Assembly: GCA_963704165.1 (NCBI GenBank)
Contig: CAVPHD010000005.1
Location: 128,001 to 192,000, forward strand
DNA length: 64,000 nt
Reading direction: 5' to 3'
Source: an uncultured delta proteobacterium
GTDB taxonomy: Bacteria > Myxococcota_A > UBA9160 > SZUA-336
Below are positions 36,486-53,249 of this stretch, in pieces. Position numbers and translations under genes: made by a program. Every line of letters starts with the position of its first letter. The stretch's first letter is position 1. Below the pieces are notes generated by a model. It ran no database searches. It had not been told where the DNA came from and saw only the letters and a program-made list of their open reading frames with translations.

Positions 36486-39314
36486 GTGAGAGGGGTGGGG
36501 GAACTGGCGTTCTCGGCGGGGCCGACTGCGTGCGCAGTTGCGCGCGTAGGTCGTCTCTTCGCAAGCGGCGCCGCATCGCTCTTGCTCGGAATCGCGCCGG
36601 CGACGCTCGTGATCGCCAATACCGACCCGCCGCCGCGAATCGTGAAGTCGGCGGATTCGCGCGACATGCGCGTCGTGCGAGGCAACCTGCACGGCCTCGC
36701 CAAGCGTGCGCGCGACGAGGGTCGGGTCGAGCCGACGCTCGTGCTCGATCGCGTCGCGCTCGTGTTCAGGCCGTCGGAGAGCCAACAGCGCGACCTCGAC
36801 GCGCTCCTGGCCGAGCAGAGGGATCCGGCCTCGCCGGGTTTCGAGAAGTGGTTGACGCCGGACGAGTACGCCGCGCGTTTCGGCATGAGCGACGCCGATC
36901 TCTCCACGGCGACGGAGTGGCTCGAGTCACAGGATCTCACGGTGCAGAGGACCGCGCGGAGCCGGAACGAGATCTCGTTTCGCGGAACCGCCGCGCAGAT
37001 CGAGAACGCGTTTCGAACCGAGATCCATCGCTACCGCATCGGGAGCGAAGTCCACTTCGCCAACGCGACCGAGCCGTCGGTCCCGAGGTCGTTCGGCGAC
37101 TCGGTGCTCGCGATCCGCAATCTCAGCGACTTCCGTCCACAGCCGAGACTTCGACGCGCGGTCCGCGGACCTCGCTTCACGTCGGGGATCACGGGCAATC
37201 ATTTCCTGGCGCCCGACGACTTCGCCACGATCTACGGTGTACAAGCGCTCTACGATGCCGGCTTCGACGGCACGGGCCAGCGCATCGCCGTGGTCGGGCA
37301 GACGGCCCTCGGCGCCGGCAACAGCCCGGCCGACATCGAGGCGTTCCGGGCGGCCGCGGGGCTGCCCGCTGCCAACCTGCAACAGGTTCTCGTCCCCGGG
37401 ACGGGAAGCTCGACGGTTTGCAGCGACGATCTCGTCGAGGCGCATCTCGACGTCGAGTGGTCGGGCGCGATCGCGAAGAACGCGACGATCGTCTACGTGT
37501 ACACGGGCGTGCGATCCGGACGCAGCTGCGAGAACACGACCGCGAACGTCTGGGACGCACTGCACTACGCGATCACGAACAACCTCGCTCCGATCCTCAG
37601 CACGAGCTACGGCGCGTGCGAGGCCGCGAACGGAGCTGGGTTCGCGCGGACGGTTCGGAGCTGGGTGCAGCAGGCCAACGCGCAGGGTCAGACCGTCACC
37701 GCCGCATCCGGGGACCTCGGCGCCGCGGACTGCGAGCCGCGCGACTCGGTCCTCGCGACGTCCGGCCTCGCGGTCGACGTGCCCGCCAGCATTCCCGAGG
37801 TGACGAGCGTCGGCGGTACCGGGTTCTACGGCGACCTGCTCGATCCCAACGCGTACTGGAGCGACACGAACAACTCGCACGGTGGATCCGCCACGCAATA
37901 CATCCCGGAGGTCGCCTGGGACGACACCGAGCTCAGCATCGCGCTCGGCGGTGGATTCGCCGCGAGCGGTGGCGGCGCGAGTCGCTACTTCTCGAAGCCG
38001 AGCTGGCAGACCGGATTCGGTGTGCCCGCCGATGGACGTCGCGACGTGCCCGACGTCTCGCTCGCCGCCTCGGCGAACCACGACGGCTACCTGATCTGCT
38101 CGCAAGGGAGCTGCGTGAACGGCTTCCGGGACGCGAACCTGTTCCTGACCGTGATCGGAGGGACGTCCGCCTCGTCGCCGAGCCTCGCGGGGATTCTCGC
38201 GCTCATCGTTCACGGTACCGGAGCGACCGGGCTCGGGAACATCAATCCCACCTTGTACGCCTTGTCTCTGAGCACACCTTCGGTGTTTCACGACGTCACG
38301 GCCGGGAGCAACGTCGTTCCGTGTAGCCCGGGTACGCCGAACTGTCCGGCGCAGCCGCCTCGCGAATTCGGGTACAGCGCGGGCGCCGGGTACGATCAGG
38401 TGACGGGCCTCGGCTCGATCGACGCGTTCGCGCTCGCGGACAGCTTCGCCGCGAAGGTCGCGACTTCGACGACGCTCTCGTCTTCGAGCGTGGCGATCGC
38501 CCCCGGCGGGAGCGTCAGCTTCACCGCGACCGTCGCGAAGCTCTCGTCCGGCTTCGGTTCGCCCACGGGCGGTGTCGTGCAGTTCTCGATCGACGGGGTC
38601 GAAGCGGGAGATCCCGTGCCCGTCTCCGTGGTCGGTGGAGCCTACCGAGCGTCGTACACGACGGCACCGCTTGCGAGCGGCACGCGCAGCGCGACGGCGG
38701 CGTACCTCGGAAATCTCGTCCATCTCCCGTCGACCTCTTCCGCCGTGAACGTGAACGTCGCGGACTACTCGCTCACGCCGAGCCCCGCGAGCGTCACCCT
38801 CTCGCCGGGTGGAGTCGGAAGTTCCACCATCACCGTCGAGAGCGCCGACGGCTTCGCGGGCACGGTGACGCTCGGCTGCACGCCCCCGGCTTCGAGCGCT
38901 CGGGTCCGTTGCTCGATCCATCCGGCGTCCGTTGCACTGAGCGGCGGATCGCCGAGTCAGACCGCGATGCTCTCGATCACGACGACCACGACGACCACGG
39001 CGGGTACGGCCACCGCGAACCCCGCGGCGGGCCCGACCGGCGGCTCCGATCCCCGCCTCGCCGTCGGCATCGGATGCGCTCTCGTTGCGGCGCTTCTCGC
39101 CTCGCGTCCGCGGCGGCGCCGGCGTCTTTCGTGGGCGCACGCGCTGGCGCTCCTCGTGATCCTCGGCACGGGCGTCAGCTGTGGGGGCGGGGGTGGTGGC
39201 GGCGGCGGTGCCACTTCGAACTCGGGGACGCCGCTCGGTGACTACACGATCGCGGTCACCGGAACGAGCGGCGCCATCGCGCGCGTGACCAGCGTTTCGC
39301 TCGCAGTCCAGTGA
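36486..39314 (+). CDS. Sedolisin/kumamolisin (S53) serine protease with prodomain, Ig-like domains and C-terminal membrane segments
   Basis: Prodomain KWLTPDEYAARFG; EAHLDVE, AASGD, RDVPDVS, GGTSASSP, GYDQVTGLGS. Start uncertain. Confidence 0.92.
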   Translation: MRGVGELAFSAGPTACAVARVGRLFASGAASLLLGIAPATLVIANTDPPPRIVKSADSRDMRVVRGNLHGLAKRARDEGRVEPTLVLDRVALVFRPSESQQRDLDALLAEQRDPASPGFEKWLTPDEYAARFGMSDADLSTATEWLESQDLTVQRTARSRNEISFRGTAAQIENAFRTEIHRYRIGSEVHFANATEPSVPRSFGDSVLAIRNLSDFRPQPRLRRAVRGPRFTSGITGNHFLAPDDFATIYGVQALYDAGFDGTGQRIAVVGQTALGAGNSPADIEAFRAAAGLPAANLQQVLVPGTGSSTVCSDDLVEAHLDVEWSGAIAKNATIVYVYTGVRSGRSCENTTANVWDALHYAITNNLAPILSTSYGACEAANGAGFARTVRSWVQQANAQGQTVTAASGDLGAADCEPRDSVLATSGLAVDVPASIPEVTSVGGTGFYGDLLDPNAYWSDTNNSHGGSATQYIPEVAWDDTELSIALGGGFAASGGGASRYFSKPSWQTGFGVPADGRRDVPDVSLAASANHDGYLICSQGSCVNGFRDANLFLTVIGGTSASSPSLAGILALIVHGTGATGLGNINPTLYALSLSTPSVFHDVTAGSNVVPCSPGTPNCPAQPPREFGYSAGAGYDQVTGLGSIDAFALADSFAAKVATSTTLSSSSVAIAPGGSVSFTATVAKLSSGFGSPTGGVVQFSIDGVEAGDPVPVSVVGGAYRASYTTAPLASGTRSATAAYLGNLVHLPSTSSAVNVNVADYSLTPSPASVTLSPGGVGSSTITVESADGFAGTVTLGCTPPASSARVRCSIHPASVALSGGSPSQTAMLSITTTTTTTAGTATANPAAGPTGGSDPRLAVGIGCALVAALLASRPRRRRRLSWAHALALLVILGTGVSCGGGGGGGGGATSNSGTPLGDYTIAVTGTSGAIARVTSVSLAVQ

Positions 39315-39376
39315 CCGCTCGCGCTCGAGCGCCGGAGGCTAGCGCGAGCCGGCGAGGTTTCGTACCTGAGCAGCGG

Positions 39377-40921
39377 ATGACGAAACCGCCCGAGAGCGAG
39401 CTGTACGTCGGGCGCGCGCCCGTCAGCGTCGATGATCTGCTCGCATTGGCGCGCTTCGAGCGAACGCCGGTGCTGTGGAGTGATCCGGGGTATCGCGAGC
39501 GCTTGCACAGTGCATTTCATGCCTTCGAGCGGCAGCTGGAACGGGGTCTGCCGGTCTACGGAGTGACCACGGGCGTCGGCGCCGCGGTGACGAACGCCGT
39601 TCCCGCCGAGCACCGGGACGCGATCGCTCCAATCCTCATCGCGTCGCTGGGAGTCGGAACGGGACGGAACCTCGACCCGCGCGAGGCCGCAGCCGTCGTC
39701 GCCGCGCGTCTCGTCTCTCTGGCGTCTGGACACTCGGGAGTGCGTCCACTCGTGCTCGAACGGCTTTGTGATTTCTTGAATGCGCGACTGCTGCCGCGGA
39801 TTCCCGAAGAGGGATCGGTCGGCGCGAGCGGTGACCTCGCGCCGCTCTCCTACCTCGCGGCCGCGCTCATCGGAACGCGCGAGGTCACGCTCGAGGGACG
39901 CACGATTCCGGCGGCCGAGGCGCATGCCGAGCTCGGACTCGAGCCGCTCGTCCTGCTGCCCCGGGAGGCTCTGTCGCTGGTCAACGGAACGAGCGTGATG
40001 ACGGCGCTCGGCTGTCTCGCTCTTCACGACGCTTTTCGCCTCGCTCGACTCGCGTGCGCGTTGACCGCGATTGCGAGCCGCGTCGTACACGGCAACCCCG
40101 CGCATTTCGATGCGCGACTCGCGGCCTGGAAGCCGCACGCGGGTCAAGTACGCGCGACGTCCTTCATCGCGGAGGACCTCGAGTACGATCCGGCCCGGCC
40201 CTTGCCGCGGCCCGCGCGGCTGCAGGATCGCTATTCGATCCGCTGCGCGCCTCACGTGATCGGTGTGCTCTTCGACGCTGCGGAGCTCACGCGTGGGGTG
40301 CTCGAGATCGAGCTGAACTCCGCAAACGACAATCCGCTCGTCGATCCGACGACGGGCGACGTTCTCCACGGCGGGAACTTCTACGGTGGCCACGTCTGCT
40401 TCGCGCTCGACGCGCTCAAGGCCGCCGTGGCGAGCGTCGCGGATCTGCTCGACCGACAGCTCGCGCTGCTGTGCAGTGCCGATGCGACGGATGGGCTGCC
40501 CGCGAACCTGATCGCCGTCGATGGACCCGCGCGGCCGATCCAGAGCGGCTTCAAGGCGATGCAGCTCGCGGCGTCCGCGCTCACGGCCGAGGCTCAGAAG
40601 CTGACACTGCCGGCCGCTGCGTTCAGCCGCAGCACGGAATCGCACAATCAGGACAAAGTGAGTCTGGGCACGATCGCCGCCCGCGACGCGCGCCGAGTGC
40701 TCGAGCTCGCCGAGACCGTCGCCGCGATCCAGCTGATCGCCTGCTGCCAGGCCATCGAGCTGCGACCCGAGGATCGCGCCAGCCGACGCGGGTACGCGTT
40801 GCTCGAGGCTTTGCGAAAGCACGTTCCGATGCTGCGCGAGGACCGACGACAGGATCAGGACATCGCCGGTGTGCTGGGCTTGCTGCGCGGAGATCTTCTC
40901 CCGCTCGGACCGCTCTCCTAG
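39377..40921 (+). CDS. Aromatic amino acid ammonia-lyase (HAL/PAL/TAL, MIO-dependent)
   Basis: YGVTTG, GSVGASGDLAPL, NGT, QDRYSIRC, NDNP, HGGNF, HNQDKVS. Alternative start GTG 39311. Confidence 0.92.
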   Translation: MTKPPESELYVGRAPVSVDDLLALARFERTPVLWSDPGYRERLHSAFHAFERQLERGLPVYGVTTGVGAAVTNAVPAEHRDAIAPILIASLGVGTGRNLDPREAAAVVAARLVSLASGHSGVRPLVLERLCDFLNARLLPRIPEEGSVGASGDLAPLSYLAAALIGTREVTLEGRTIPAAEAHAELGLEPLVLLPREALSLVNGTSVMTALGCLALHDAFRLARLACALTAIASRVVHGNPAHFDARLAAWKPHAGQVRATSFIAEDLEYDPARPLPRPARLQDRYSIRCAPHVIGVLFDAAELTRGVLEIELNSANDNPLVDPTTGDVLHGGNFYGGHVCFALDALKAAVASVADLLDRQLALLCSADATDGLPANLIAVDGPARPIQSGFKAMQLAASALTAEAQKLTLPAAAFSRSTESHNQDKVSLGTIAARDARRVLELAETVAAIQLIACCQAIELRPEDRASRRGYALLEALRKHVPMLREDRRQDQDIAGVLGLLRGDLLPLGPLS

Positions 40922-41017
40922 CTGGGAAACGCCGGCAGCACCGCATCGGGGCACTCCGTCCGCTCGTCCGCCGTGTCAGAATCGCCGAGCGCGGTCACGC
41001 GAGACGAGGAGGCGCTC

Positions 41018-42149
41018 ATGCTATCGAAGTTCGACGACTACCCGATCCACCAGACCGCGGAGCCGATCGCGGTCCCGGCATCGACCGACCGCAATGCCTA
41101 CGACCGCTACTGGTTCAATGGCTACACGGACGACGGGGAGTTCTACTTCGGTGTCGGGGCGGCGCTGTATCCGAACCTGGGGATCATGGACTGCGGATTC
41201 AGCATCGTCCGCGACGGCGAGCAGCACGCGTTTCACGCCTCGCGCCGGGCGCCGCGCGAGCCGAGCCGCGTCGAGGTGGGTCCGTTCCGGATCGAGATCA
41301 TCGAGCCGCTCCGGGCGCTGCGCGTCGTGCTCGACGCCAACGAGACCGGGCCTCTCCGCCGATCTGCTCTGGATCCCGCGCACGTCGAGCTTCTCCGAGG
41401 GCCAGCAGCGTCAGCGCCGCCGGCGCGGCACGATGGACGCGACGCGCTTCAACCAGTTCGGGCGCTGGCGCGGCGAGATCCGCTACGCGGGACGCACGCT
41501 CGCGATCGATCCCGCGCGCGTCTACGGAACGAAGGACCGCTCGTGGGGCGTTCGTCCCGGTCGGCGATCCCGGACCCGGGCGGCGCGCCAGCCGTCGCCG
41601 GGCGAGCCGAGCGGGATCTTCTTCCTCTGGGCGCCGCTGCACTGGAAGCATCGCTGCACCCATGCGGGCATCTTCGAGACCAATGCCGGCGTGCGCTGGC
41701 ACTGGAACGGAGCGACCGTGCCCGTCTACGACGATCCGGAGAAGATCCCGCTCGTCGATGACCCGGGACTCGCGGCCGCTGCTCGCGGTCGATCACAAGC
41801 TCGAGTACGTCCCCGGCACGCGCCGCGCGAGCGCGCGCCGTGATCACGAAGGTCGAGCTCGACGGCACACGCAACGAGATCGAGCTGCTCGCCGCTCACC
41901 TGCTTCCGGATGAAGGGCATCGGCTACCAGCATCCCGTCTGGGGCCACGGCAAGTGGCACGGCGAGCTCGCGATCGGCGGCGAGTCGTGGAAGTGCTCCG
42001 ATCTCGACGAGATCGCCCTCGAGAATCAGCACATCCAGCAGGTCATGCGCGCGCGCTGGGGCAACGACATCGGCGTCGGGGTTCTCGAGCAGATCTGCAT
42101 CGGGCCGTATCCGAAGTACGGGCTCAAGGGCTTGCTCGATCCGGCCTGA
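41018..42149 (+). CDS. Conserved hypothetical beta-rich protein, several apparent frameshifts
   Basis: GAGGAGG SD; DDYPIHQT...YDRYWFNG, KDRSWGVRP, MKGIGYQHPVWGHG...EQICIGP distributed over different frames. Confidence 0.7.
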
Positions 42150-42150
42150 G

Positions 42151-43911
42151 TCAGCGCACCGGGCTGTTCAGCCAGAGTCGTTCCGCGATCGCGTTCTGCC
42201 CGGCGATGCTCGGGTGGAAGCAATCGCTTCCGTTGATCTCGTTCGGCCCGAACGCGATCGTGCCGACCGAGGGCAGGGTTTCTCCGCGGTATTCGGCGAC
42301 CACGCGCAGGCCGCGCGGGTTCTGACCGTTCGCGTTCGAGGCGTACGCCTCCGCCGTCTCGACCAGGATCTCGTTGTAGCGTCGCTGCCGCTCCGCGATC
42401 GCGCCGAGTCGGACGGACTGCGTCTCGGAGTTGGGCGTGCCCGGGTCGGTGGCGACGCGGCAGATGTCGAAGACCTCCCAGGCGAGTTCGCAGTCCACGT
42501 TCGACGACAGGCTCTGCTTCGCGAGGCCGGCGGCCGGCAGATCCTGCACGCGCGGGACGCTGCCGAGGTAGATCGTCGCCCCGTCGGGCAATCCGGCGGT
42601 CAGTGCGCTCAGACCCAGCTCGACGGCATCGCGCCACTCCGTGTCCGTGAACAGTGGCTGTGGACAGGCGCCGGGGATCGCGCAGCCGCGGCTGCAGATG
42701 TCGTTCCCGCCGAGCAGCACGATCGCGAAATCCGGAAGCGGGTTCTGCGCGAGGATCCGGTTCGCCTGGATCGCGAAACTGTCGCTGCCGCCGCGCATGC
42801 GCGCGCCGCTCGCGGCGGCGGACCCGACCGCCAGGATCGTGGGATCGAAGAAACGATAGCGGGTGCGAAGGTCGAAGACGCTCGAAGAGCTGCCGTTGAA
42901 GTAGGAGTACTCTGGCTGCTCTGCGCCGCCGAGCGCGCATTCGAGCAGACACGAGAGGCCGAGGTTGCACTCGCAGCTCGCGGCGAATCCGCGCGTGATG
43001 CTGTCGCCCGCCACGGCCATCCGAACGGGCAACTCGCCCGCGCCGACCGACGCCCGGCAGACGGGTTCGAGCGACGCGCTTCCCGCGAGCGCCGCTCGCA
43101 ATCGCGAAGCATCGAGCACGTCGCAGTCCATCGACCCGCCGGCGACGCTGCACTTCGCGGGATCGAAGACCCCCGGAGCGAGCATCGCGAGCGACCGCCG
43201 GAGGACGACCGCGTCCGCGATGTCGATCCGGCCGTCGTTCTGCGTGTCGCCGCACTCGCACGCGTCACCGATCCCGTTCACGGGCAGGCTCGAGTCGAGC
43301 TGGCTCGGGTTCGAGACGAACGGGCAGTTGTCGAAGAGGTTCGCGAGCCCGTCGCCGTCGAAATCCGAGTTCGACTGCGCGTTCGCCGGGTGGACCCCGA
43401 AGAGCGTCAGCGCGAGGGCGAGCAGGAGAACGAGCTTCTTCGTCGCGAACAGGGTCGGCGCGTGCCAGCCGCCGAAGCCGAACTCGCGGTAGAGCTTCTG
43501 CGCGCCGGTGTTCGTCTGGTGAACCTCGAGCGTCATCTTGCAGCAGCCTCGCGCCCGGGCGCGGCGCTCCGCCTCCTCGAGCAGCGCGCGCCCCACGCCG
43601 CGGCCGCGGTGCGCGGGGAGCACGGCGAGGTCGTGCACGTTCAGGAAGTCGCGGCCGGCGAACGTCGAGAAGCCGAAGAAGCAGACCGCGGCACCCACCG
43701 GGGCGTCGTCGAGGAAGGCGAGCAGTACGAACGTCTGCGGGTGGGCGCGCAGTCCCGGCACGAGCGCGTCCCGGACCCCGTCCGCGAGCGCCGCGTTCTG
43801 TCCGCCGGGCTCGCGCGCGTACGCGTCGAGGATCGCGAAGAGCGCGTCGGCGTCGCTCGCGCTTTCGAGGTCGGCGTCGCGGATCGCGACCGCGCTCGGA
43901 GTCGATTTCAT
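42151..43911 (-). CDS. GNAT acetyltransferase fused to signal/TM segment, TSP3-like repeat, dockerin-like motif and SGNH/GDSL hydrolase (586 aa)
   Basis: No stop between NVHDLAV..RGRGVG..N..A..LY..GF (GNAT) and DFDGDG..DNCP, GDTQNDGRIDIADA, AGDSIT, GGND, DCFHPS. Confidence 0.8.
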   Translation of the reverse strand: MKSTPSAVAIRDADLESASDADALFAILDAYAREPGGQNAALADGVRDALVPGLRAHPQTFVLLAFLDDAPVGAAVCFFGFSTFAGRDFLNVHDLAVLPAHRGRGVGRALLEEAERRARARGCCKMTLEVHQTNTGAQKLYREFGFGGWHAPTLFATKKLVLLLALALTLFGVHPANAQSNSDFDGDGLANLFDNCPFVSNPSQLDSSLPVNGIGDACECGDTQNDGRIDIADAVVLRRSLAMLAPGVFDPAKCSVAGGSMDCDVLDASRLRAALAGSASLEPVCRASVGAGELPVRMAVAGDSITRGFAASCECNLGLSCLLECALGGAEQPEYSYFNGSSSSVFDLRTRYRFFDPTILAVGSAAASGARMRGGSDSFAIQANRILAQNPLPDFAIVLLGGNDICSRGCAIPGACPQPLFTDTEWRDAVELGLSALTAGLPDGATIYLGSVPRVQDLPAAGLAKQSLSSNVDCELAWEVFDICRVATDPGTPNSETQSVRLGAIAERQRRYNEILVETAEAYASNANGQNPRGLRVVAEYRGETLPSVGTIAFGPNEINGSDCFHPSIAGQNAIAERLWLNSPVR

Positions 43912-43992
43912 CTCGGTCTTCCCTTCACTGCTCCGAGCATACGATTCGCAGCGCTGGTCTTCGACGCCGTCGCTGGATAGCATCGATCCGAC

Positions 43993-45174
43993 GTGACTGC
44001 GCACGGGCACGATCACGGTATCGCCGAACCCGAGATCCGGGAGGATCTCCGCACCGCCCATCGGATGGTGCTCGAGTACTTCCGCCGGCCGGGGAACTGG
44101 TTCACCGGCGCGCAGCGCAGCTCCATCGTTGGCGAGGCGAGACTGGCGAAGCGCTGTCCGCTCTGTCGCGCTCGCAAGGCCGGGCCATCGCCGGAGCACG
44201 CGAGTGGCGCCCACGAAACCACGGGTGAGCTTCCCGAGGCGCTCGTCGACCTGGTCCACCGCGTGCGGACGGACCCGGGCCGGCTTTCGCGAACCGTGTT
44301 CGACGCGACGCTCGCGGCCGGTGGCTCGGTCGGCGAGTACGTCGAGGCGGTGGGTATCGTCGCCCTCGCCGCGGGGCTCGACAGCCAGTGCCGCGCGTTG
44401 GGAATCCCGGACTTCCGTCTGCTCGAGCCGCTGCCCGGCGAACCGTCGCGAGTGCTGCCGAGGGGGCTCGAGGCGGGACGAGCCTGGGTGCCGACGCTGC
44501 CGCCCGACGCCGCGACCGGTTCCGAGGCCGACCTCTACGGGGGAGCGAGCTTCGTTCCCAACATCGTGCGCGCGCTCTCCTGCGTGCCGGACCACGTCCG
44601 CGTGCTTCGGACGTGGATCGACGCGCACTACGTCTCGCTCCTGGATCTCGGGGCGAGACGCGCGATCGATCGCATGCAGATCGAGCTCGTCGCCTCGCGC
44701 GTCTCGGCGCTGAACGAGTGTTTCTACTGAACCACCTCGCACGCGACGCTGCTCCGTGCGAGCGGCAAGCTGAATGGGGTCGAGATCGATCTGGCGCAAG
44801 TCAACGATGGAGCGGTGCACGGCGACGGCGGTGTCGCGCACGGCGCGCGATTGACCGCCTTCACGGACGCCGTCATGGCGGACGACGACGAGGAGCTCGT
44901 CGCTCGTCGGAGGGAGCTTTGCGCCGTGCTCTCGGCCGAAGCGTTCGTCGACACCTGCGCGACGATCGGCGCCTTCAACGTCGTCGATCGGATCGCGGAC
45001 GCGACCGGAATCCGGCTCGATGACCGGATGATCGGCATGAGCGCGCAGGTCAGGGACGAGCTCTCGCTCGGACGCTTCGGGTCCTCGGCCAACACGTTCG
45101 GAGCGGACGCCGCTAGCGATACGCGGCGGCCTGAATCCCGTACAGCTCCGAGTAGGTCCCGCGACGGGCCATGA
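43993..45174 (+). CDS. AhpD/carboxymuconolactone decarboxylase-like probable selenoprotein (Sec at codon 246, TGA 44728-44730)
   Basis: QIELVASRVSALNECFY-TGA-TTSH; frame stays open for 147 more codons with an AhpD-like C-terminal part (FNVVDRIADATG); hairpin immediately downstream. Confidence 0.82.
44731..44765 (+). promoter_or_regulatory. Candidate bacterial SECIS element
   Basis: CTCGCACG (44736-43) pairs perfectly with CGTGCGAG (44755-62), starting 5 nt after the TGA. Confidence 0.6.
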
Positions 45175-46894
45175 GCTCCTCGTGCGTTCCGGTCTCGACC
45201 ACGCGTGCGCCATCGAGCACGACGATCCGGTCGGCCATGCGCACGGTGCTGAAGCGGTGTGAGACGAGAACCGTGATCTGTTCGCCGCGCGAGGCCTTCG
45301 CGTAACGCTCGAACAGCGCGTGCTCGGTCTCGGCGTCGAGAGCCGCGGTCGGCTCGTCGAGGATCAGCACGAGCGGTTTCTCGCGCATGAAGCCGCGCGC
45401 GAGCGCGAGCTTCTGCCACTGGCCGAACGAGAGCTCGACGCCCTCGGGCCAGCTCGGACCGAGCTGTGTTTCGAGCCCGGCTTCGAGCCGCGCGACGACA
45501 TCGTCCGCTCCGGCCCGGTCGACGGCCGAGTGAACGGCGGGCTCGTCGTCGAGTCGCGGCAGGTCCCCCACGCCGACGCTGTGCCTCGTCCGGAACTCGA
45601 AGCGGAAGAAGTCCTGGAACGCTCCTGCGAGCCGTGCACGCCACGCGTCGGCCGGCATACGCGACAGGTCCACGCCGTCGACGAGGATTCGGCCGCGTGT
45701 CGGAGAGTAGAGGCGGCACAGGAGCTTCACGAGCGTGCTCTTTCCGGCGCCGTTCTCGCCGACGATCGCGACCACCGAGCCCGGCTCGAGCTCGAGATTC
45801 ACGTCGTCGAGAATCAGGCGTTCCGTGCCGGGATACGCGAACGACACGTGCTCGAACCGGAGGCCGCGTTCGATCCGATCGGGAACGCGCTCGTCCGCAT
45901 CTCGCACGAGCGACTCCGCGTAGTCCTCGAGCCACGCCATGCGCACCGAGCCGTCGAGCCAGATCCCGCGCAGGAAACCGATCTCGCCCACCGTCGCGCC
46001 GATGTACGCCGAGAGGCGCGCGCCCGCCGCGAGCACGAGCAGCACGCTCCCGGGCGAGGTCGGTTGCAGGGACGAGACGAACACGATCGAGCCCACGTAC
46101 CCGAAGCCGAAGATCGCCCAGGCGAGCGCGTGCCACGCGGCGCTCTCGAATCGCGCGCGCGCGACCGGTCGATACCAGCGTTCCCACGCCTCGCGCCTTC
46201 GCGTCACCAGTCGCTCGCCGACCCGCATCACCCGCACTTCCTTTCCCGGCGGCGCGGTCGTTGCGGTGTCGAAGAGATGGCGCGCGAGGCGGTTCGCCGA
46301 GGCGCCGCGTTCCTCGGCCACACGCTCGACACCCGGCCGCCAGCTCGCGGTGAGCACGGTCGGCAGCGCCAGCACGGCGAGCAGCGCCAGCGCGGGGTGG
46401 ATCGAGACGAGCAACGCGAGCGTCACGCCGAGGCGCAGCACCCAGCCGCACGTGGTGAAGAGCGACATGTACATGTGGTCGAGCACGAAGACCTGATTGC
46501 GAAGCACCGCGAGCCGGTCGAGGTAGTCGGGTCGCTCGTGGTGCGCGATCGTGGCCACGCTCGCCTGCAGGTTTGCGACGTGGGACTCGAGCGCGATCGT
46601 CACCTGGTCGCGGAAACGCCGCTGCGTCCGGTCGCTGACCACGCGCAGGAACCAGGTCGCCGCGGCCGAGGCGCCGAGTCCGACGGACGCTGCGAGCACG
46701 AGCGTGCGGTCGCCCGCGACCAGACCGTCGGCCAGGAACTTGAACAGCAGCGCAAGCAGCGCGTCGGGCAGCGCCGCGAGCAGCGACAACCCGAACGAGA
46801 CCGAGAGCAGCAACGGCTCGGCCTGGTAGCCACGCTGGAGCGCCCGCCACATCGACGGCAGTGCCGCGGGAAGCGGGATCTCAGTCGAGGACAT
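45113..46894 (-). CDS. ABC exporter, fused TMD-NBD half transporter
   Basis: GENGAGKS, signature LSFGQ, ILDEPT, SHRFSTV. Confidence 0.92.
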   Translation of the reverse strand: MSSTEIPLPAALPSMWRALQRGYQAEPLLLSVSFGLSLLAALPDALLALLFKFLADGLVAGDRTLVLAASVGLGASAAATWFLRVVSDRTQRRFRDQVTIALESHVANLQASVATIAHHERPDYLDRLAVLRNQVFVLDHMYMSLFTTCGWVLRLGVTLALLVSIHPALALLAVLALPTVLTASWRPGVERVAEERGASANRLARHLFDTATTAPPGKEVRVMRVGERLVTRRREAWERWYRPVARARFESAAWHALAWAIFGFGYVGSIVFVSSLQPTSPGSVLLVLAAGARLSAYIGATVGEIGFLRGIWLDGSVRMAWLEDYAESLVRDADERVPDRIERGLRFEHVSFAYPGTERLILDDVNLELEPGSVVAIVGENGAGKSTLVKLLCRLYSPTRGRILVDGVDLSRMPADAWRARLAGAFQDFFRFEFRTRHSVGVGDLPRLDDEPAVHSAVDRAGADDVVARLEAGLETQLGPSWPEGVELSFGQWQKLALARGFMREKPLVLILDEPTAALDAETEHALFERYAKASRGEQITVLVSHRFSTVRMADRIVVLDGARVVETGTHEELMARRGTYSELYGIQAAAYR

Positions 46895-48677
46895 CGAGCC
46901 CCGCTTCCGCTTCGTCGTCGCCGAAGCGCGACGCCTGCAGGTCGAACATGGTGCGGTAGCGTCCGCCGCGCGCCATCAGCTCGTCGTGCGTGCCGAGTTC
47001 GACGACGGCGCCACGCTCGAGCACGCAGATCCGATCGGCGTGGCGAACGGTCGAGAAGCGGTGCGAGATGAGGATGGTCGTGGTGTGCCGCGTCTCGGCG
47101 AGGATGCGGTCGAAGATCTCGGCTTCGCCGCGCACGTCGAGCTGGGCGGTCGGCTCGTCGAGCAGCACGACGCCGGCGCCGAGCCGCACCGCGCAGAGCG
47201 CGCGTGCGAGCGCAACGCGCTGCCACTGCCCGCCGGAGAGCTCGGTGCCGCCGAAGTAGCCGCGCGCGAGGATCGTGTCGAGATCGGCGAGCCGCGTGGC
47301 GCCGGCGTCTTCGAGCGAAGCACGGATCACGTCGTCGGACGCACCGGCGGGAGCGACGTTGTCGCGAAGCGGCAGCTCGAAGCGCACGAAGTCCTGGAAG
47401 ACCGCGGCCAGGCGCGAGCGCCAGCCGTCGAGGTCGAGCGTGCGAAGGTCGACGCCGTCGATCTCGATCGCTCCCTGCTGCGGGTCGTAGAGCCGGCACA
47501 GGAGCTTCGCGAGCGTCGTCTTGCCCGCACCGTTCTGTCCGACGATCGCGAGCGACGAGCCCGCCGGAATCGTCAGGTCGAAGCCCTCGAGCACCGGCTC
47601 GCCGGTCGTCGGATACGCGAACGTGACGTCGCGGAACCGGATTTCGCGCGCGGGCAAGCCTTCGGCCGAGCGCTCACCGCGCGAGAGCGCTCCGGCTCGC
47701 GCCATCGTGTCCTGAAGTCGGAGCACGGCCGCGGCCGGCGCGGAGGCACCATCGAGCGCCCACGACAGCCCGCCGAACGCGATCATGCTCGCGCCGACCG
47801 CCGCGCTCGCGTAGGTGACGAGCTCCGCGAGCGAGAGGCGCCCGCTCGACGCGTCCGCACCCATCGCGAAGAGCACGACGACGTTCGCCGCGAGCACGAG
47901 CAACAGGCTCCAAAGCACCGGACGCTCGCGGAGCCGGGTCGCCTGCCAGCGAAGCTCGAAGAGCCGACGGCGGCGCGAGCGAAAGCGCTCGATGGTCCAG
48001 TCGGAGAGCCCGAAGAGGCGCAGCTCCTTCGAGGCGGGCGGGTCCACCGCGATCCGATACGCGTAGTCGGCGTGTCGCTGTGCTTCGCGAACCTCGTCGG
48101 TGTTGCGATCGCGCCAGACACCGCTCTCGCGCAGGAGCCAGTGCGTGCCGAGCCAGGCGCCGCCGAGCACGAACGGCGCCCACCACGCATAGCCGAAGAG
48201 GAGGACTGCCGAGGCGAACCCGGCGAGGAACTCGACGAGTCCGCTCGCGATGAAGTCCATCGAGATCGAGAGCGGCGGTCCGCTGATGCCGAGGTCGAAG
48301 TCCCGCGCCATCGCGAGGTCGTTCGTCAGCTCCGAATCCTCCAGATGCCCCATGCCCGGCGGGCGAACACAGGCGATCGCGAGCCGGTCGTAGAGCCAGG
48401 CGGCCGTGCGACTGCCCAGGTTCGTACCCAGAGCCTGGTGGAGCGGAGCGAGGACCTGGAGCCCCACGAAAACGACACCGACGAGTGTCAGAGGAAGTGC
48501 GAGCGAGGCACCGCTCTGGACGGCTCCGACGAGCGCGCCCATCGCCACCGCGAAGAGCGCCGGCAGGAGCCCCCGCAGCGCGAGCACGAGCCACCAGAGG
48601 TAGGCGAGCGCACGATCGGCGTGCGGAAGGACTCCCGCGAACTTCCACTCGTCGCGCTCGCGCAGTCCTTCGATCAC
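46881..48677 (-). CDS. ABC exporter, fused TMD-NBD half transporter
   Basis: GQNGAGKT, LSGGQ, LLDEPT, SHRFSTV. Confidence 0.92.
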   Translation of the reverse strand: MIEGLRERDEWKFAGVLPHADRALAYLWWLVLALRGLLPALFAVAMGALVGAVQSGASLALPLTLVGVVFVGLQVLAPLHQALGTNLGSRTAAWLYDRLAIACVRPPGMGHLEDSELTNDLAMARDFDLGISGPPLSISMDFIASGLVEFLAGFASAVLLFGYAWWAPFVLGGAWLGTHWLLRESGVWRDRNTDEVREAQRHADYAYRIAVDPPASKELRLFGLSDWTIERFRSRRRRLFELRWQATRLRERPVLWSLLLVLAANVVVLFAMGADASSGRLSLAELVTYASAAVGASMIAFGGLSWALDGASAPAAAVLRLQDTMARAGALSRGERSAEGLPAREIRFRDVTFAYPTTGEPVLEGFDLTIPAGSSLAIVGQNGAGKTTLAKLLCRLYDPQQGAIEIDGVDLRTLDLDGWRSRLAAVFQDFVRFELPLRDNVAPAGASDDVIRASLEDAGATRLADLDTILARGYFGGTELSGGQWQRVALARALCAVRLGAGVVLLDEPTAQLDVRGEAEIFDRILAETRHTTTILISHRFSTVRHADRICVLERGAVVELGTHDELMARGGRYRTMFDLQASRFGDDEAEAGLDVLD

Positions 48678-48696
48678 TCGTCGAACTCCAGCGCGC

Positions 48697-49311
48697 TCAG
48701 CTTGGAACGGCCATGCCCTTCACGACCGCGGGGCGCGCGGCGATTCGCTCGAGCCAGGCTACCACGCGCGGCAGCTTGATCAGGTCGGGCATCTTCAGCT
48801 GCAGCGGAAACGAGAGCCACGGGTAGTGCATGATGTCGCCGATCGAGTAATCGCCGGCGAGATACGGACGTCCGTCGGCGAGGATCCGATCGAGCACGCC
48901 GTACAGGCGCGCCATCTCGGCGGAGAAGATCTGGATCATCTCGGAGTTCTTCTCGCCTTCCTTCCGGAGCGCCGCGCCGAGACGACCGAGATTCGGACCG
49001 ACGCCCCCGGTCTGGAAGAACGCGAGCTCGATGGCCTGGCTCCGCTTGCGCGCCTCCTTCGGCAAGATCGACCCCTTCGGATCGTGCTTCTCGCCGAGGT
49101 GCAGCAGGATCGCGCCCGATTCCCAGATCGCGAGCCCGTCGTCCTCGAGCACGGGGATCTTGTGGTTCGGATTCAGCGCGAGGAATTCGGGCTTCATCTG
49201 TTCGTTCGCGCCGAGATCGACCTTGCGCACCTCGTAGGCGAGCCCGAGCTCTTCGAGCGCGATCGAGATCTTGCGGCCGTTCGGCGTCATCCAGGTGTGA
49301 AGGCGGAGCAT
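48697..49311 (-). CDS. Glutathione S-transferase family protein (Nu class, YfcG-like)
   Basis: TPNGRKISIALEE, NPNHKIP, ESGAIL, YSIGDI. Confidence 0.9.
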   Translation of the reverse strand: MLRLHTWMTPNGRKISIALEELGLAYEVRKVDLGANEQMKPEFLALNPNHKIPVLEDDGLAIWESGAILLHLGEKHDPKGSILPKEARKRSQAIELAFFQTGGVGPNLGRLGAALRKEGEKNSEMIQIFSAEMARLYGVLDRILADGRPYLAGDYSIGDIMHYPWLSFPLQLKMPDLIKLPRVVAWLERIAARPAVVKGMAVPS

Positions 49312-49348
49312 CGGATTCTCCTCGGTGGGTTGGCTTATACTGCCGCGC

Positions 49349-50221
49349 GTGAAGCTTGCGACATTCACGCACGCGGGAGCGACGCGAATCGGCGTCGTGG
49401 TTGGGAGCGAAGTGGTCGATCTGGCGGTCGCCGCGCCCGAGCTTCCACGCGAGATGGAGGCCTTCCTCGCCGCAGGCTCGAGCGCGCTCGACCGCGCGCG
49501 GGCGGTGGCGCAAAGCGGAGAGCGAATCGCGCTCGCCGAGGTCCGGCTCGAGGCGCCGTGTCTGCGACCGCGGAAGTTCCTGGCCATCGGGCTCAACTAT
49601 GCCGACCACATCGCTGAGACGGGCCGACCCGCGCCGGAGTTTCCGGTCTTCTTCAACAAGCAGACCTCGTGCGTGAACGGACCCTACGATCCGATCTGGA
49701 TGCCGAGGGTTTCCGACAAGCTCGACTACGAGGGTGAGCTCGCGTTCGTGATCGGGCGGCGTTGTCGCCACGTGCCGAAGAACCGGGCACACGAGGTGAT
49801 CGCCGGCTACCTGATCTGCAACGACGTCTCGGTGCGAGACTGGCAGCACCGGGCGCCGACGATGACGCTCGGCAAGTCCTTCGACACGCACGGGCCGCTC
49901 GGTCCGTTCCTGGTCACTCCCGACGAGCTCGGCGATCCGCACGTCCTCGATCTCGAGACGACGGTCGACGGCGAGCGACGTCAGAAGTCGAACACGCGGC
50001 ACCTCGTCTTCGACTGCTTCGACCAGGTCGAGACGCTCTCGACCGCGTTCACGCTCGAGCCCGGCGACGTGATCAGCACGGGAACCTGCGGGGGGGTCGG
50101 CGTCGCGATGAACCCGCGCGGATACCTGAAGGTCGGTCAACGCGTGCGGGTGACGATCTCTGGCCTCGGTCAGATCGAGAACCAGGTCGTGCCCGAGCCG
50201 GCGGACAGCGCGCGGACATGA
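49349..50221 (+). CDS. Fumarylacetoacetate hydrolase family protein
   Basis: [37 protein letters not shown]. Confidence 0.93.
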
Positions 50222-51764
50222 ACGGCGCCGAGGCTCTGATCCGCAGCGCGATCGCTTCGGGCGTCGAGGTCTGTTTCGCGAACCCCGGCACGACGGAGAT
50301 GCACCTGGTGGCCGCGCTCGACTCGGCGCCCGGGATGCGCGCGGTGCTCGGCCTCTTCGAGGGTGTCGTGACCGGTGCGGCCGACGGCTACGCGCGCATG
50401 GCCGGCAAGCCTGCGCTGACGATCACGCACCTGGGACCCGGCTTCGCGAACGGCATCGCGAACCTTCACAACGCGCGGCGCGCGAATACCCCGGTCGTGA
50501 ACCTGATCGGCGATCAGGCGACCTGGCACCTCGATGCGGACGCGCCACTCACCTCGGATGTCGAGTCACTCGCGAAACCCGTCTCGGTCTGGGTGCGAAA
50601 GACGAAGACGGCGGCCGAGCTCGCCACCGACGTGGTCGAGGCGATCGCGGCGTCGCGGCGTGCGCCTGGCGGAGTGGCCACGCTGATCGTCCCGGCCGAC
50701 TGCGCCTGGGGAGAGGCGCCGGGCATCGCGAGGCCGATCGCCTTCGAAGTCGCACTCGAGGTGCCCCGGCGAGTGGATCGACGAGGCGGCGCGCGCGCTG
50801 CGATCGGGCGAGCCCGCGTCTGATCCTGCTCGGTGCGAACGCGCTCTCGAGGCGTGGATCGCTCGCGGCCGCTCGCGTCGCCGCGAAGTCCGGCGCGCGG
50901 GTCATGTTCGGCACGTTCCCCGCGCGCGTCGAGCGCGGCGCCGGCCTGCCGGCGTTCTCGAAGTTCCCGTATTTCCCGGAGCAGGGCGTCGAGCTGCTTT
51001 CCAAGGTCGGTCGGCTCGTGCTCGCGGGCGCGACGGAGCCGGTCGCATTCTTCGGCTATCCGAACACGCCGAGCCGGCTCACGCCGTCGAGCTGTCGCAT
51101 TTCGGTGTTGGCACGACCGGATCACGATGCGGCGGGCGCGCTCGAAGCGCTGGCCTCCGCGCTCGGTGCGGGGCCGAACGGAGCCGAGCTCGCGACTCGC
51201 GCGTCGATCGAGCCGGCGACCGGCAAGCTCACGCCGGACGCGCTCGGTCGCACGCTCGCCGCGCTTCAGCCCGAGAACGCGATCGTCGTCGACGAAGCCG
51301 CGACCTCGGGTGCGCCGTGGTTCGGCTTCGCGAGCGGCGCGTTGCCGCATTCGTCGCTCGGTCTCACCGGCGGCGCGATCGGTCAGGGGTTGCCGAATGC
51401 CGTCGGCGCCGCGATCGCGTGTCCGGATCGGCGGGTGATCGCGCTTCAGGCCGACGGCAGCGGCATGTACACGCTTCAGGCGCTGTGGACCGCTGCGCGC
51501 GAGTCCCTCGACGTGAAGACGATCATCTGCGCGAATCGCATGTACCGCATCCTGAAGGTCGAGCTCGCACGTGCGGACATCTCGCAGCCCGGCCCCGCCG
51601 CACGCTCGCTCACCGACCTCGGATCGCCGGATCTCGATTGGGTCTCGCTCGCGCGCGGCATGGGTGTTCCCGGGGAGCGCGCCGAAACGGCGGAGGAATT
51701 CGCGGGCGCGCTCGGCCGCGCGTTCGCCGAGCCCGGACCGTATCTCGTCGAAGCGGTGCTCTGA
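50218..51764 (+). CDS. Thiamine diphosphate-dependent enzyme (acetolactate synthase large subunit-like), two apparent frameshifts
   Basis: [35 protein letters not shown]; breaks near 50765 and 50819. Confidence 0.88.
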
Positions 51765-51773
51765 GTCGAACCC

Positions 51774-52488
51774 ATGGCAGGCGTCAAGCTCGACCACGTC
51801 GCGATCGGCCTCCCCACCGCCGGGCTCGCGAAGCCGTTTTTCGAGGACGTGCTCGGCGGCGCTCCGGCGGGTGGGCATTCGGGTGTTCCGTTCGGCTTCA
51901 CGCAGTGGGCGTTCGCGGGTGGCGGAAAGATCGAGGTGATCTACCCGATGGGTCCGCCCGACGGGTTCCTGCACCGCTTCCTCGCGCACGGCGGCCCGCG
52001 CATCCACCACGTGACGTTCAAGGTGCCGAGCCTCGACGAGATCTGCGCGCGCGCGACCGAGCTGGGCTACACCGTCGTGGGTACGGACCGCTCCGACCCG
52101 CACTGGCAGGAGGCGTTCCTGCACCCGAAGCAGGCCCAGGGCATCGTCGTGCAGCTCGTCGAGTCGAAGCCGCGGCCGGGCTGGGACGACGGACCCGCTC
52201 CGAAGCCGCGCGCGGACGCTGCGCGCGTTCGCGGTCTGCGTCTTTCCGCGAAGTCGGCAGACGCTTCGCGAAGGCAGTGGAGCGAGCTGCTCGGCGCAGA
52301 GTGCTCGCGCTCCGGGGAGTCGCTCCGGTTTCGCTGGGCCGACTCGCCGCTCGCGATCTCTCGTCGATGTCGATTCGCGACGCGACGAGGGACCGCTGCA
52401 GATCGAGCTCGACGCCGCGCGGGATCTCGCCTTGCCCGAGGGCCGTCACCCGGAGCTCGGCACGCGCTTCGTGCAGGTGCCCGGGTGA
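51774..52488 (+). CDS. VOC family protein (methylmalonyl-CoA epimerase-like), one apparent frameshift
   Basis: LDHVAIG, IEVI, IHHVTFKV, EAFLHPKQAQGIVVQLVE; coding continues in another frame after about 52365 to TGA 52486-88. Confidence 0.8.
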
Positions 52489-53249
52489 CGCGAAGGGGAA
52501 TCGTCCTTCACCAGTTTCCCTACTCGCACTATGCCGAGAAGGCCCGTTGGGCACTCGACTGGAAGCGAATCCCCCACGAGCGCGTCGACTACCTGCCCGG
52601 TCCGCACGTCCCGCAGATGCTTCGGCTTTCGGGTCAGCAGGAGGTGCCGGTTCTGCAGATCGGCGAACGCGTGATCGCGGGCTCGGCCGCGATCATCGAC
52701 GAGCTCGAGAAGCTCTTTCCCGAGCCCGCGCTCTACCCGGCCGATCCGGAGCAACGCGAGCGCGCGCTCGCGCTCCAGCGGCACTTCGACGTCGAGCTGG
52801 GGCCGCGCATCCGCCGTGCGCTCTTCTCGGTGCTGATCCGCGAGCCGGCCTACATGTGCCGGATCTTCGCCGGGCGTCGCAGCGCGCCGGTGCGCGCCGC
52901 GTACCGCGCGCTCTTTCCAGCGACGAAGCAGGTGATGGGACGCAGCATGGCGCTCTTCGACGCGCGCGCGATCGAGGATTCGTTCCGTGGCACGCGCGAG
53001 GCGCTCGACCGGGTCGCGAAGGAGGTCGCGGGGAGCGGGCAGCTCGTCGGCGATCGCTTCGGCATCGCGGATCTGACGGCCGCCGCGTTCTTCGCGCTGC
53101 TCCTGAAACCCGATCACCCCGACATGGCGCGACCCGAGCCAGTGCCGGAGCGCGTACGAGAGCTGATGTCGGGCTTCGCGCCGCACGCCGGCATGCACTG
53201 GGCTCTCGAGCAGTACCGACTTCACCGCCCGATTCGCACGGGCGGCTGA
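52485..53249 (+). CDS. Glutathione S-transferase family protein
   Basis: GTGA coupling; SHYAEKARWALDWK, VPVL, SAAIIDELE, FGIADLTAA. Confidence 0.86.
   Translation: MTRRGIVLHQFPYSHYAEKARWALDWKRIPHERVDYLPGPHVPQMLRLSGQQEVPVLQIGERVIAGSAAIIDELEKLFPEPALYPADPEQRERALALQRHFDVELGPRIRRALFSVLIREPAYMCRIFAGRRSAPVRAAYRALFPATKQVMGRSMALFDARAIEDSFRGTREALDRVAKEVAGSGQLVGDRFGIADLTAAAFFALLLKPDHPDMARPEPVPERVRELMSGFAPHAGMHWALEQYRLHRPIRTGG

Follow-up and report, generated by a model that had tools for sequence, protein, structure and literature searches.

A probable selenoprotein gene of the AhpD-related NF041238 family in an uncultured delta proteobacterium, with a predicted tandem AhpD fold

The window, a stretch of 64,000 nucleotides from an uncultured delta proteobacterium, contains a gene for a protein of 393 amino acids that is interrupted by one in-frame TGA, and this TGA almost certainly encodes selenocysteine (Sec). 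By its sequence profile the gene is a plain member of a catalogued family, NCBIfam NF041238 (AhpD_rel_CFYUT). Its product is probably a two-domain oxidoreductase with a predicted AhpD fold, which would reduce organic hydroperoxides at a single C-F-Y-U site. The family has been known since 2005 and has been modelled by NCBI, and this gene is one more member; what can be probed further is its predicted architecture, with a single active site that contains Sec, a sister domain with a probable Zn site, and an overall fold like that of Sestrin. The features of the gene are collected in Table 1.

Table 1. Features of the NF041238 gene, in positions of the window
Feature	Position	Strand	Basis or remark
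Entire gene for the alkylhydroperoxidase-related selenoprotein (NF041238), 393 aa if the TGA is Sec	43993..45174	+	Profile match, residues 15-363
AhpD-like domain at the N terminus (residues 12-150), a degenerate copy of the C-terminal one	44026..44442	+	hhalign, Foldseek
C55-P-L-C58 (CPLC)	44155..44166	+	With H74 (44212-44214) and H89 (44257-44259), predicted Cys2His2 metal site
C-terminal AhpD-like catalytic domain (peroxidase-related, TIGR01926-like), residues 160-363	44470..45081	+	Profile matches
Active-site motif E231 ... C243-F-Y245-U246-x3-H250	44683..44742	+	AhpD proton-relay spacing
Inferred selenocysteine codon 246 (in-frame TGA)	44728..44730	+	TGA/Cys conservation in relatives
8-bp stem of the earlier reading, 44736-44743 with 44755-44762	44736..44762	+	Perfect in this copy
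Conserved SECIS-like hairpin, 7-bp stem and 5-nt loop CGUGC	44748..44766	+	Loop begins 24 nt past the UGA
30-aa C-terminal tail, non-conserved	45082..45174	+	Outside the NF041238 match

The open reading frames 43993-44730 and 44815-45174 (plus strand) lie in the same frame with only the TGA at 44728-44730 between them, as had been stated in an earlier reading of this DNA made from the sequence alone (the sequence-only reading). Read through, this single frame is open from the GTG at 43993, the likeliest start codon of the 393-aa gene, to the TGA at 45172-45174, and the context of its one internal TGA is LNECFY*TTSHATLLRASG. The NF041238 match starts before Met25, the first residue of the stored gene call P0002. 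Third-position GC was 0.86 on the 5' side of the internal TGA and 0.87 on the 3' side, so both sides look coding. The earliest in-frame start 3' of the TGA is the GTG at 44815, 28 codons on and with a GGAG just 2 nt ahead of it, which agrees with the previous remark that there is no SD or canonical start near the junction. No promoter or terminator consensus was found in 43800-45300. Third-position GC was 0.63 over 45091-45171, in the C-terminal tail, the final 62 nt of which overlap the 3' end of a convergent gene for an ABC transporter (45113-46894, minus strand).

Against NF041238 the read-through protein scored 413 bits (cut-off 175) and covered profile positions 1-356 of 357. The separate halves scored 264 bits (positions 1-238) and 119 bits (positions 241-356), meeting at the TGA, and the C-F-Y-U/C-T motif of the family was present as NECFY-TGA-TTSH. 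Pfam CMD (PF02627) was matched at 27.2 bits against a cut-off of 23, which was passed solely in the read-through form, while the scores for AhpD proper (TIGR00777, 16.7 vs 191.95 bits) and for TIGR01926 (35.4 vs 81.8 bits) were below cut-off. The whole-length match, the CFYUT motif, the CxxU, and the one Sec are all shared with the family, and the sole difference is the non-conserved tail that overlaps the ABC transporter gene. Within the literature searched, the family was found in a 2026 review alone, in which it corresponds to "hypothetical protein 1" from the Sargasso Sea, 2005; no biochemical study of the family was found in the literature searched.

Matches to NF041238 over its cut-off were found in 24 of the 201 genomes of the phylum. 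All 24 belong to the class of the window, for which 38 genomes were included, and none were among the 163 genomes outside it. Each of the 32 over-cut-off matches in these 201 genomes contained exactly one TGA, and the TGA was at codon 246 in all 26 close relatives inspected, which came from 24 genomes. The host genome (3.87 Mb, 84% complete, 68% GC) contained a second gene of the family (L006, C1:79001-80059; 41% identical, 460.8 bits) with the same TGA and hairpin. Also in the host genome were selA (508.6 bits), selB (281.8 bits), and selD (334.3 bits), each over its cut-off, and the tRNA-Sec gene, selC, on contig C9, so that a search for selABCD proposed earlier found all four. The host selD has an in-frame TGA of its own, in GGG*ARK. 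selA was present in all 24 genomes carrying NF041238. No selA was found in three genomes of the same family that had no over-cut-off match, nor in that of Pseudomaricurvus alkylphenolicus, the homolog of which has Cys. The carrier genomes are kin within a single class rather than independent samples, so no statistic was attached to this co-occurrence.

Apparent frameshifts near 50790 and 52330 in the same assembly could be taken to favor the TGA being a true stop, in which case there would be two separate genes or a pseudogene, or the assembly would be in error. This explanation is hardly conceivable given that the same codon is TGA in every relative inspected and that all 24 of their genomes have selA. 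A stop at this point would also halve the active site, and full-length homologs with Cys exist.

The gene had been expected to be split by gene callers, and protein collections do hold it as two pieces identical to it in sequence, one of 221 aa ending in ECFY (P0002) and a C-terminal one of 99 aa (P0207). Of the 451 homologs in the database, the best 120 were compared at the motif: 118 stop exactly at xCFY and two read through with Cys. In other words, 118 of these 120 are stored cut at the Sec codon, which is a lesson for annotation. From 1491 representatives at 50% identity, the best 150 were sorted in the same way: in 107 the sequence stops at the motif, in 27 it continues through it with Cys, and 16 did not fit the motif pattern used. 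Forms with Cys at codon 246 include P0012, P0022, and L037, and a single-protein locus scan returned one locus, that of the Pseudomaricurvus Cys form. Conservation of codon 246 as TGA or Cys, with homology on both sides, is what the sequence-only reading had anticipated. The natural pair of Sec and Cys orthologs provides a means to gauge what selenium adds to AhpD chemistry.

Single-domain relatives and paralogs were also seen. Five distant single-domain hits had TGA (three) or Cys (two) at the motif. The TGA stands at the motif (CVY*, CFY*) in L033, L035, and L036, which are short AhpD-like genes of one domain from other classes of the phylum, and L031 and L034 have Cys in place of the TGA. 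Several distant single-domain AhpD-like matches also hold a TAG. In one genome (G163:C80:61124-64167; L013 and L041), two NF041238 paralogs lie face to face, about 1 kb apart.

In bacteria the SECIS element is a stem-loop just 3' of the UGA, and its apical loop is small and contains a G (PMC1088965). Across 26 copies of the gene, 97.3% of the cells in the stem of the conserved hairpin (44748-44754 with 44760-44766) were paired, and the small apical loop of 5 nt had two invariant G residues. This degree of pairing was reached by none of 500 shuffles and was far above that of slid controls, which are biased in that the hairpin was first spotted in the query sequence. RNAalifold, unprompted, chose six of its seven pairs. 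Seven double-sided changes were observed, all at one base pair, and this one covarying pair may represent one inherited event. Codon choice was restricted in the same region of 24 genes: the Leu at +8 was encoded by CTC in 24 of 24 (vs 50% CTC elsewhere in the same genes), and the Arg at +9 by CGT or CGG in 24 of 24 and never by CGC (vs 56% CGC elsewhere). The +10 codon always ended in G, and +11 was always AGC, AGT, or GGC. The Pseudomaricurvus Cys form was without the +8/+9 codon pattern.

A different stem, of 8 bp, had been pointed out in the sequence-only reading. It is perfect in this copy and does start 5 nt past the TGA, and in a 43-nt fold its energy was lower than that of the conserved hairpin, with which it is mutually exclusive. 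As a SECIS element it was rejected: 82.7% of its cells were paired, vs 82.5% in shuffled alignments, and 279 of 500 shuffles were as high, so that it showed no covariation beyond shuffles. Judging from the aligned copies, this stem is probably not the functional SECIS. The stability of the hairpin in a single sequence was not significant relative to shuffles (z = -0.3, -1.3, and -0.8 for three stretches), and a crude filter for CxxU or UxxC plus a hairpin gave 274 hits genome-wide at 68% GC, mostly noise. For these two reasons the case for Sec was built on homology and not on the hairpin.

The C-terminal domain was matched by profile to the PDB entries 6K40, 3C1L, 2PFX, 2OYO, and 2PRR, with E from 3.5e-12 to 7.5e-9. 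Its E231, C243, Y245, and H250 were invariant in 27 of 27 aligned rows, and in the model the helices 227-240 and 244-260 form a two-helix hairpin around the CxxU. The spacing matches E36/C48/Y50/C51/H55 of Pseudomonas aeruginosa PA0269, for which PMC3141380 gives a measured weak reduction of H2O2. The proteins of the TIGR01926 set (2PRR, 2OYO, 2PFX, 3C1L, and the D. radiodurans AhpD, 6K40) and PA0269 have the same fold as the C-terminal domain and the E...CxYC...H relay. However, these proteins are single-domain and Cys-only, while the protein described here has Sec at the second Cys and a degenerate domain fused in front. The AhpD of M. tuberculosis (TIGR00777, 1GU9) has the helix-turn-helix CxxC motif and the relay spacing in common with it, but Tyr is found here at the position of its His132, and no ahpC adjoins the gene or was found in the genome. 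The initial proposal of an AhpD/CMD-like selenoprotein with UGA in a CxxU is thus supported by the NF041238 score, by TGA/Cys conservation, and by the presence of selABCD.

An AlphaFold2 model, computed from a 27-row alignment with Cys substituted for Sec, had a pLDDT of 94.5 and a pTM of 0.94. In a wide structural search the top match was human Sestrin2 (5CUF; Z 16.7, rmsd 3.7, 245 aligned, 12% identity), followed by the debrominase Bmp8 (Z 12.9, rmsd 3.1, 180 aligned). Further matches were 2PFX (Z 12.7), 3LVY (12.4), and 2GMY (10.9), and the M. tuberculosis AhpD was matched at Z 7.8 (rmsd 2.9, 139 aligned). The top eight matches consisted of Sestrin2 and chains of the AhpD/CMD family, with other folds at Z ≤ 3.4. 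The 393-aa protein is therefore predicted to be a tandem AhpD pseudo-dimer. The double-domain organization that had been suggested for it is backed by this predicted structure and by the profile alignment of the two halves (hhalign, E 6e-4, probability 28%), in which CPLC was placed on CFYU. BLASTP of one half against the other gave no match, and the repeat was visible by profiles and structure only. Folded alone, the N domain had a pLDDT of 94.5, and its top ten Foldseek rows were all AhpD/CMD-family chains; the best was 2PRR (TMq 0.63, E 0.12), and none had an E below 0.001.

Sestrin2 has two AhpD-like domains per chain, one catalytic and the other diverged (PMC4674687). The best structural match thus has the same two domains in one chain as the protein described here, but in Sestrin2 the N domain is catalytic, with a single Cys125, whereas here the complete relay and the CxxU are in the C domain. 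Orthology to sestrins had no support from sequence, with no Pfam sestrin match at E 0.1 and no Sestrin2 among PDB profile matches to E 10. Bacterial fused AhpD dimers resembling sestrins have already been described, with YciW and proteins of Rokubacteria and Corynebacterium, but not the NF041238 family, named in PMC11429811. It is therefore likely that the AhpD domain was duplicated here independently of the sestrins. In the literature searched, no link of NF041238 to the sestrin fold or to a metal site was found; either addition may already have been noted elsewhere.

The N-terminal CPLC was analyzed in the 136 representatives that cover the N domain (14 of the 150 were dropped for gaps), which were selected with a query that itself bears a CxxC. 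The CxxC was kept in 126 of the 136, and H74 and H89 were both present in 123 of those 126. Of the ten representatives without CxxC, eight were without H74 and five without both His. The exceptions included two proteins with both His but no CxxC, and three with CxxC but no H74. In a tree built without the region of the candidate metal site, each of the 13 exceptions adjoins intact proteins (support values between 0.01 and 1.0), and because the exceptions are scattered in this way the losses look independent. That the CxxC travels and is lost with H74 and H89 suggests that C55, C58, H74, and H89 form a Cys2His2 metal site, as far as can be predicted from sequence. The divergent second subfamily (L026, L028, and L029) has no N-terminal CxxC and neither His, so the candidate metal site would be dispensable.

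The alignment of CPLC on CFYU in the internal repeat, together with the frequent conservation of CxxC at its position, might instead point to an additional redox centre, from which electrons would pass to the CxxU, in place of a metal site. In most representatives, however, the relay positions around CPLC are occupied by V/L/I (43) and K/R (62) rather than by Glu and His, and the loss of CPLC together with two distant histidines is better explained by a shared ligand, which makes such a centre extremely unlikely. The CPLC noted in the sequence-only reading is present at residues 55-58, then, but probably does not form another active site of the AhpD type. A more speculative proposal, which we regard as doubtful, is that NF041238 proteins are Sestrin-like pseudo-dimers in which a Sec peroxidase domain is joined to a sister domain with an ancestral CxxC converted into a Cys2His2 zinc site, which acts, perhaps, as a switch releasing zinc upon oxidation. 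If this were true, one half of the chain would serve catalysis and the other sensing, in the order opposite to that of Sestrin2.

In AhpD, the second Cys is the attacking Cys. If the NF041238 protein is a peroxidase, as favored here, the selenolate of Sec246 would by analogy attack the O-O bond, Cys243 would resolve the selenenic acid formed in this step, giving a selenenylsulfide, and the proton relay would consist of His250, Tyr245, and Glu231, as in AhpD. Following standard bacterial Sec biology, SelB with Sec-tRNA would bind the conserved hairpin and deliver Sec to the UGA. Once oxidized, the CxxU site would be re-reduced by a cellular dithiol, for example a lipoyl arm or thioredoxin. The N-terminal repeat, which is without the relay residues, would likely bind Zn via C55, C58, H74, and H89 and may be a structural half that replaces the second subunit of the AhpD dimer.

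Alternatively, a selenoprotein of the same fold could be a disulfide-reducing adaptor, like the M. tuberculosis AhpD in its action on AhpC. Instead of reducing peroxide directly, it would take electrons from a lipoylated protein and hand them to a partner that is peroxiredoxin-like or otherwise oxidized. PMC3141380 assigns this to AhpD as its main role, and the host genome contains sucB-like lipoyl acyltransferase genes (the best at 331.8 bits, under the cut-off of 378.65) as well as two distant AhpC-like frames, each with a TGA. Nevertheless, the search of the host genome gave no AhpC above its cut-off, which favors direct peroxidase action, though weakly because completeness is only 84%. At 21 other loci no partner gene recurred next to the family, and the adaptor role seems unlikely.

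The AhpD fold also supports other chemistry, Bmp8 being among the top structural matches, and the selenolate might be used for another reductive reaction, such as reductive dehalogenation like that of Bmp8, or for removal of reactive chlorine or electrophiles. Such a function could be read from the second rank of Bmp8 in the structural search and from the two genes with GST domains in the window. On the other hand, the full CxxU with its Glu, Tyr, and His relay fits a peroxidase-type AhpD, the nearest proteins in sequence are peroxidase-related (Bmp8 was absent from the 12 sequence hits), and the GST genes are not conserved neighbors, so that this function appears very unlikely and peroxidase action continues to be preferred.

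Upstream of the gene and divergent from it is a GNAT gene, and downstream are two convergent ABC transporter genes and then a GST. Window positions 38001-51100, a stretch that ends before the VOC/GST gene near 52 kb, were compared with 21 other loci of the family with flanks of about 5-6 kb. At E 1e-10, no second case of the GNAT, the GDSL protein, or the ABC pair beside the family was seen, and the aromatic amino acid lyase and FAA hydrolase of the window recurred once each. Only one class of neighbor was common, an SDR-like oxidoreductase, at 7 of the 21 loci, with none in the window stretch compared. The GST, ABC, and GNAT neighbors to which the sequence-only reading had drawn attention are present in the window but are not conserved beside the family, and a functional link to them was rejected on the grounds that the GNAT, GDSL, and ABC genes do not recur. 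There is thus no conserved neighbor from which a substrate could be read.

Several other genes in the host genome and window were observed. Distant AhpC/peroxiredoxin-like frames with one in-frame TGA each were found at C9:338398-338763 (minus strand) and C7:167297-167578 (plus strand), the latter with a UxxC, and these are likely further selenoproteins. In the window, the long open frame at 42151-43910 (minus strand) contains a GNAT acetyltransferase and, after it, a secreted protein that has both a TSP3 repeat and a GDSL-lipase domain; these are probably separate genes with a boundary near 43470. At 40973-42150 (plus strand) a protein appears to be broken over three frames (40973-41761, 40869-41843, and 41910-42149), the first piece of which had no Pfam hit. 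The thiamine-diphosphate enzyme gene at 50218-51764 (plus strand), with TPP_N and TPP_C in separate ORFs, is split near 50790 by a frameshift or an assembly error. An apparent VOC/glyoxalase-GST fusion at 51774-53249 (plus strand) probably results from a frameshift near 52330, as another frame has a natural-looking VOC C-terminus that ends where the GST begins. A secreted sedolisin/kumamolisin-like protease with an Ig-like domain is encoded at 36486-39314 (plus strand).
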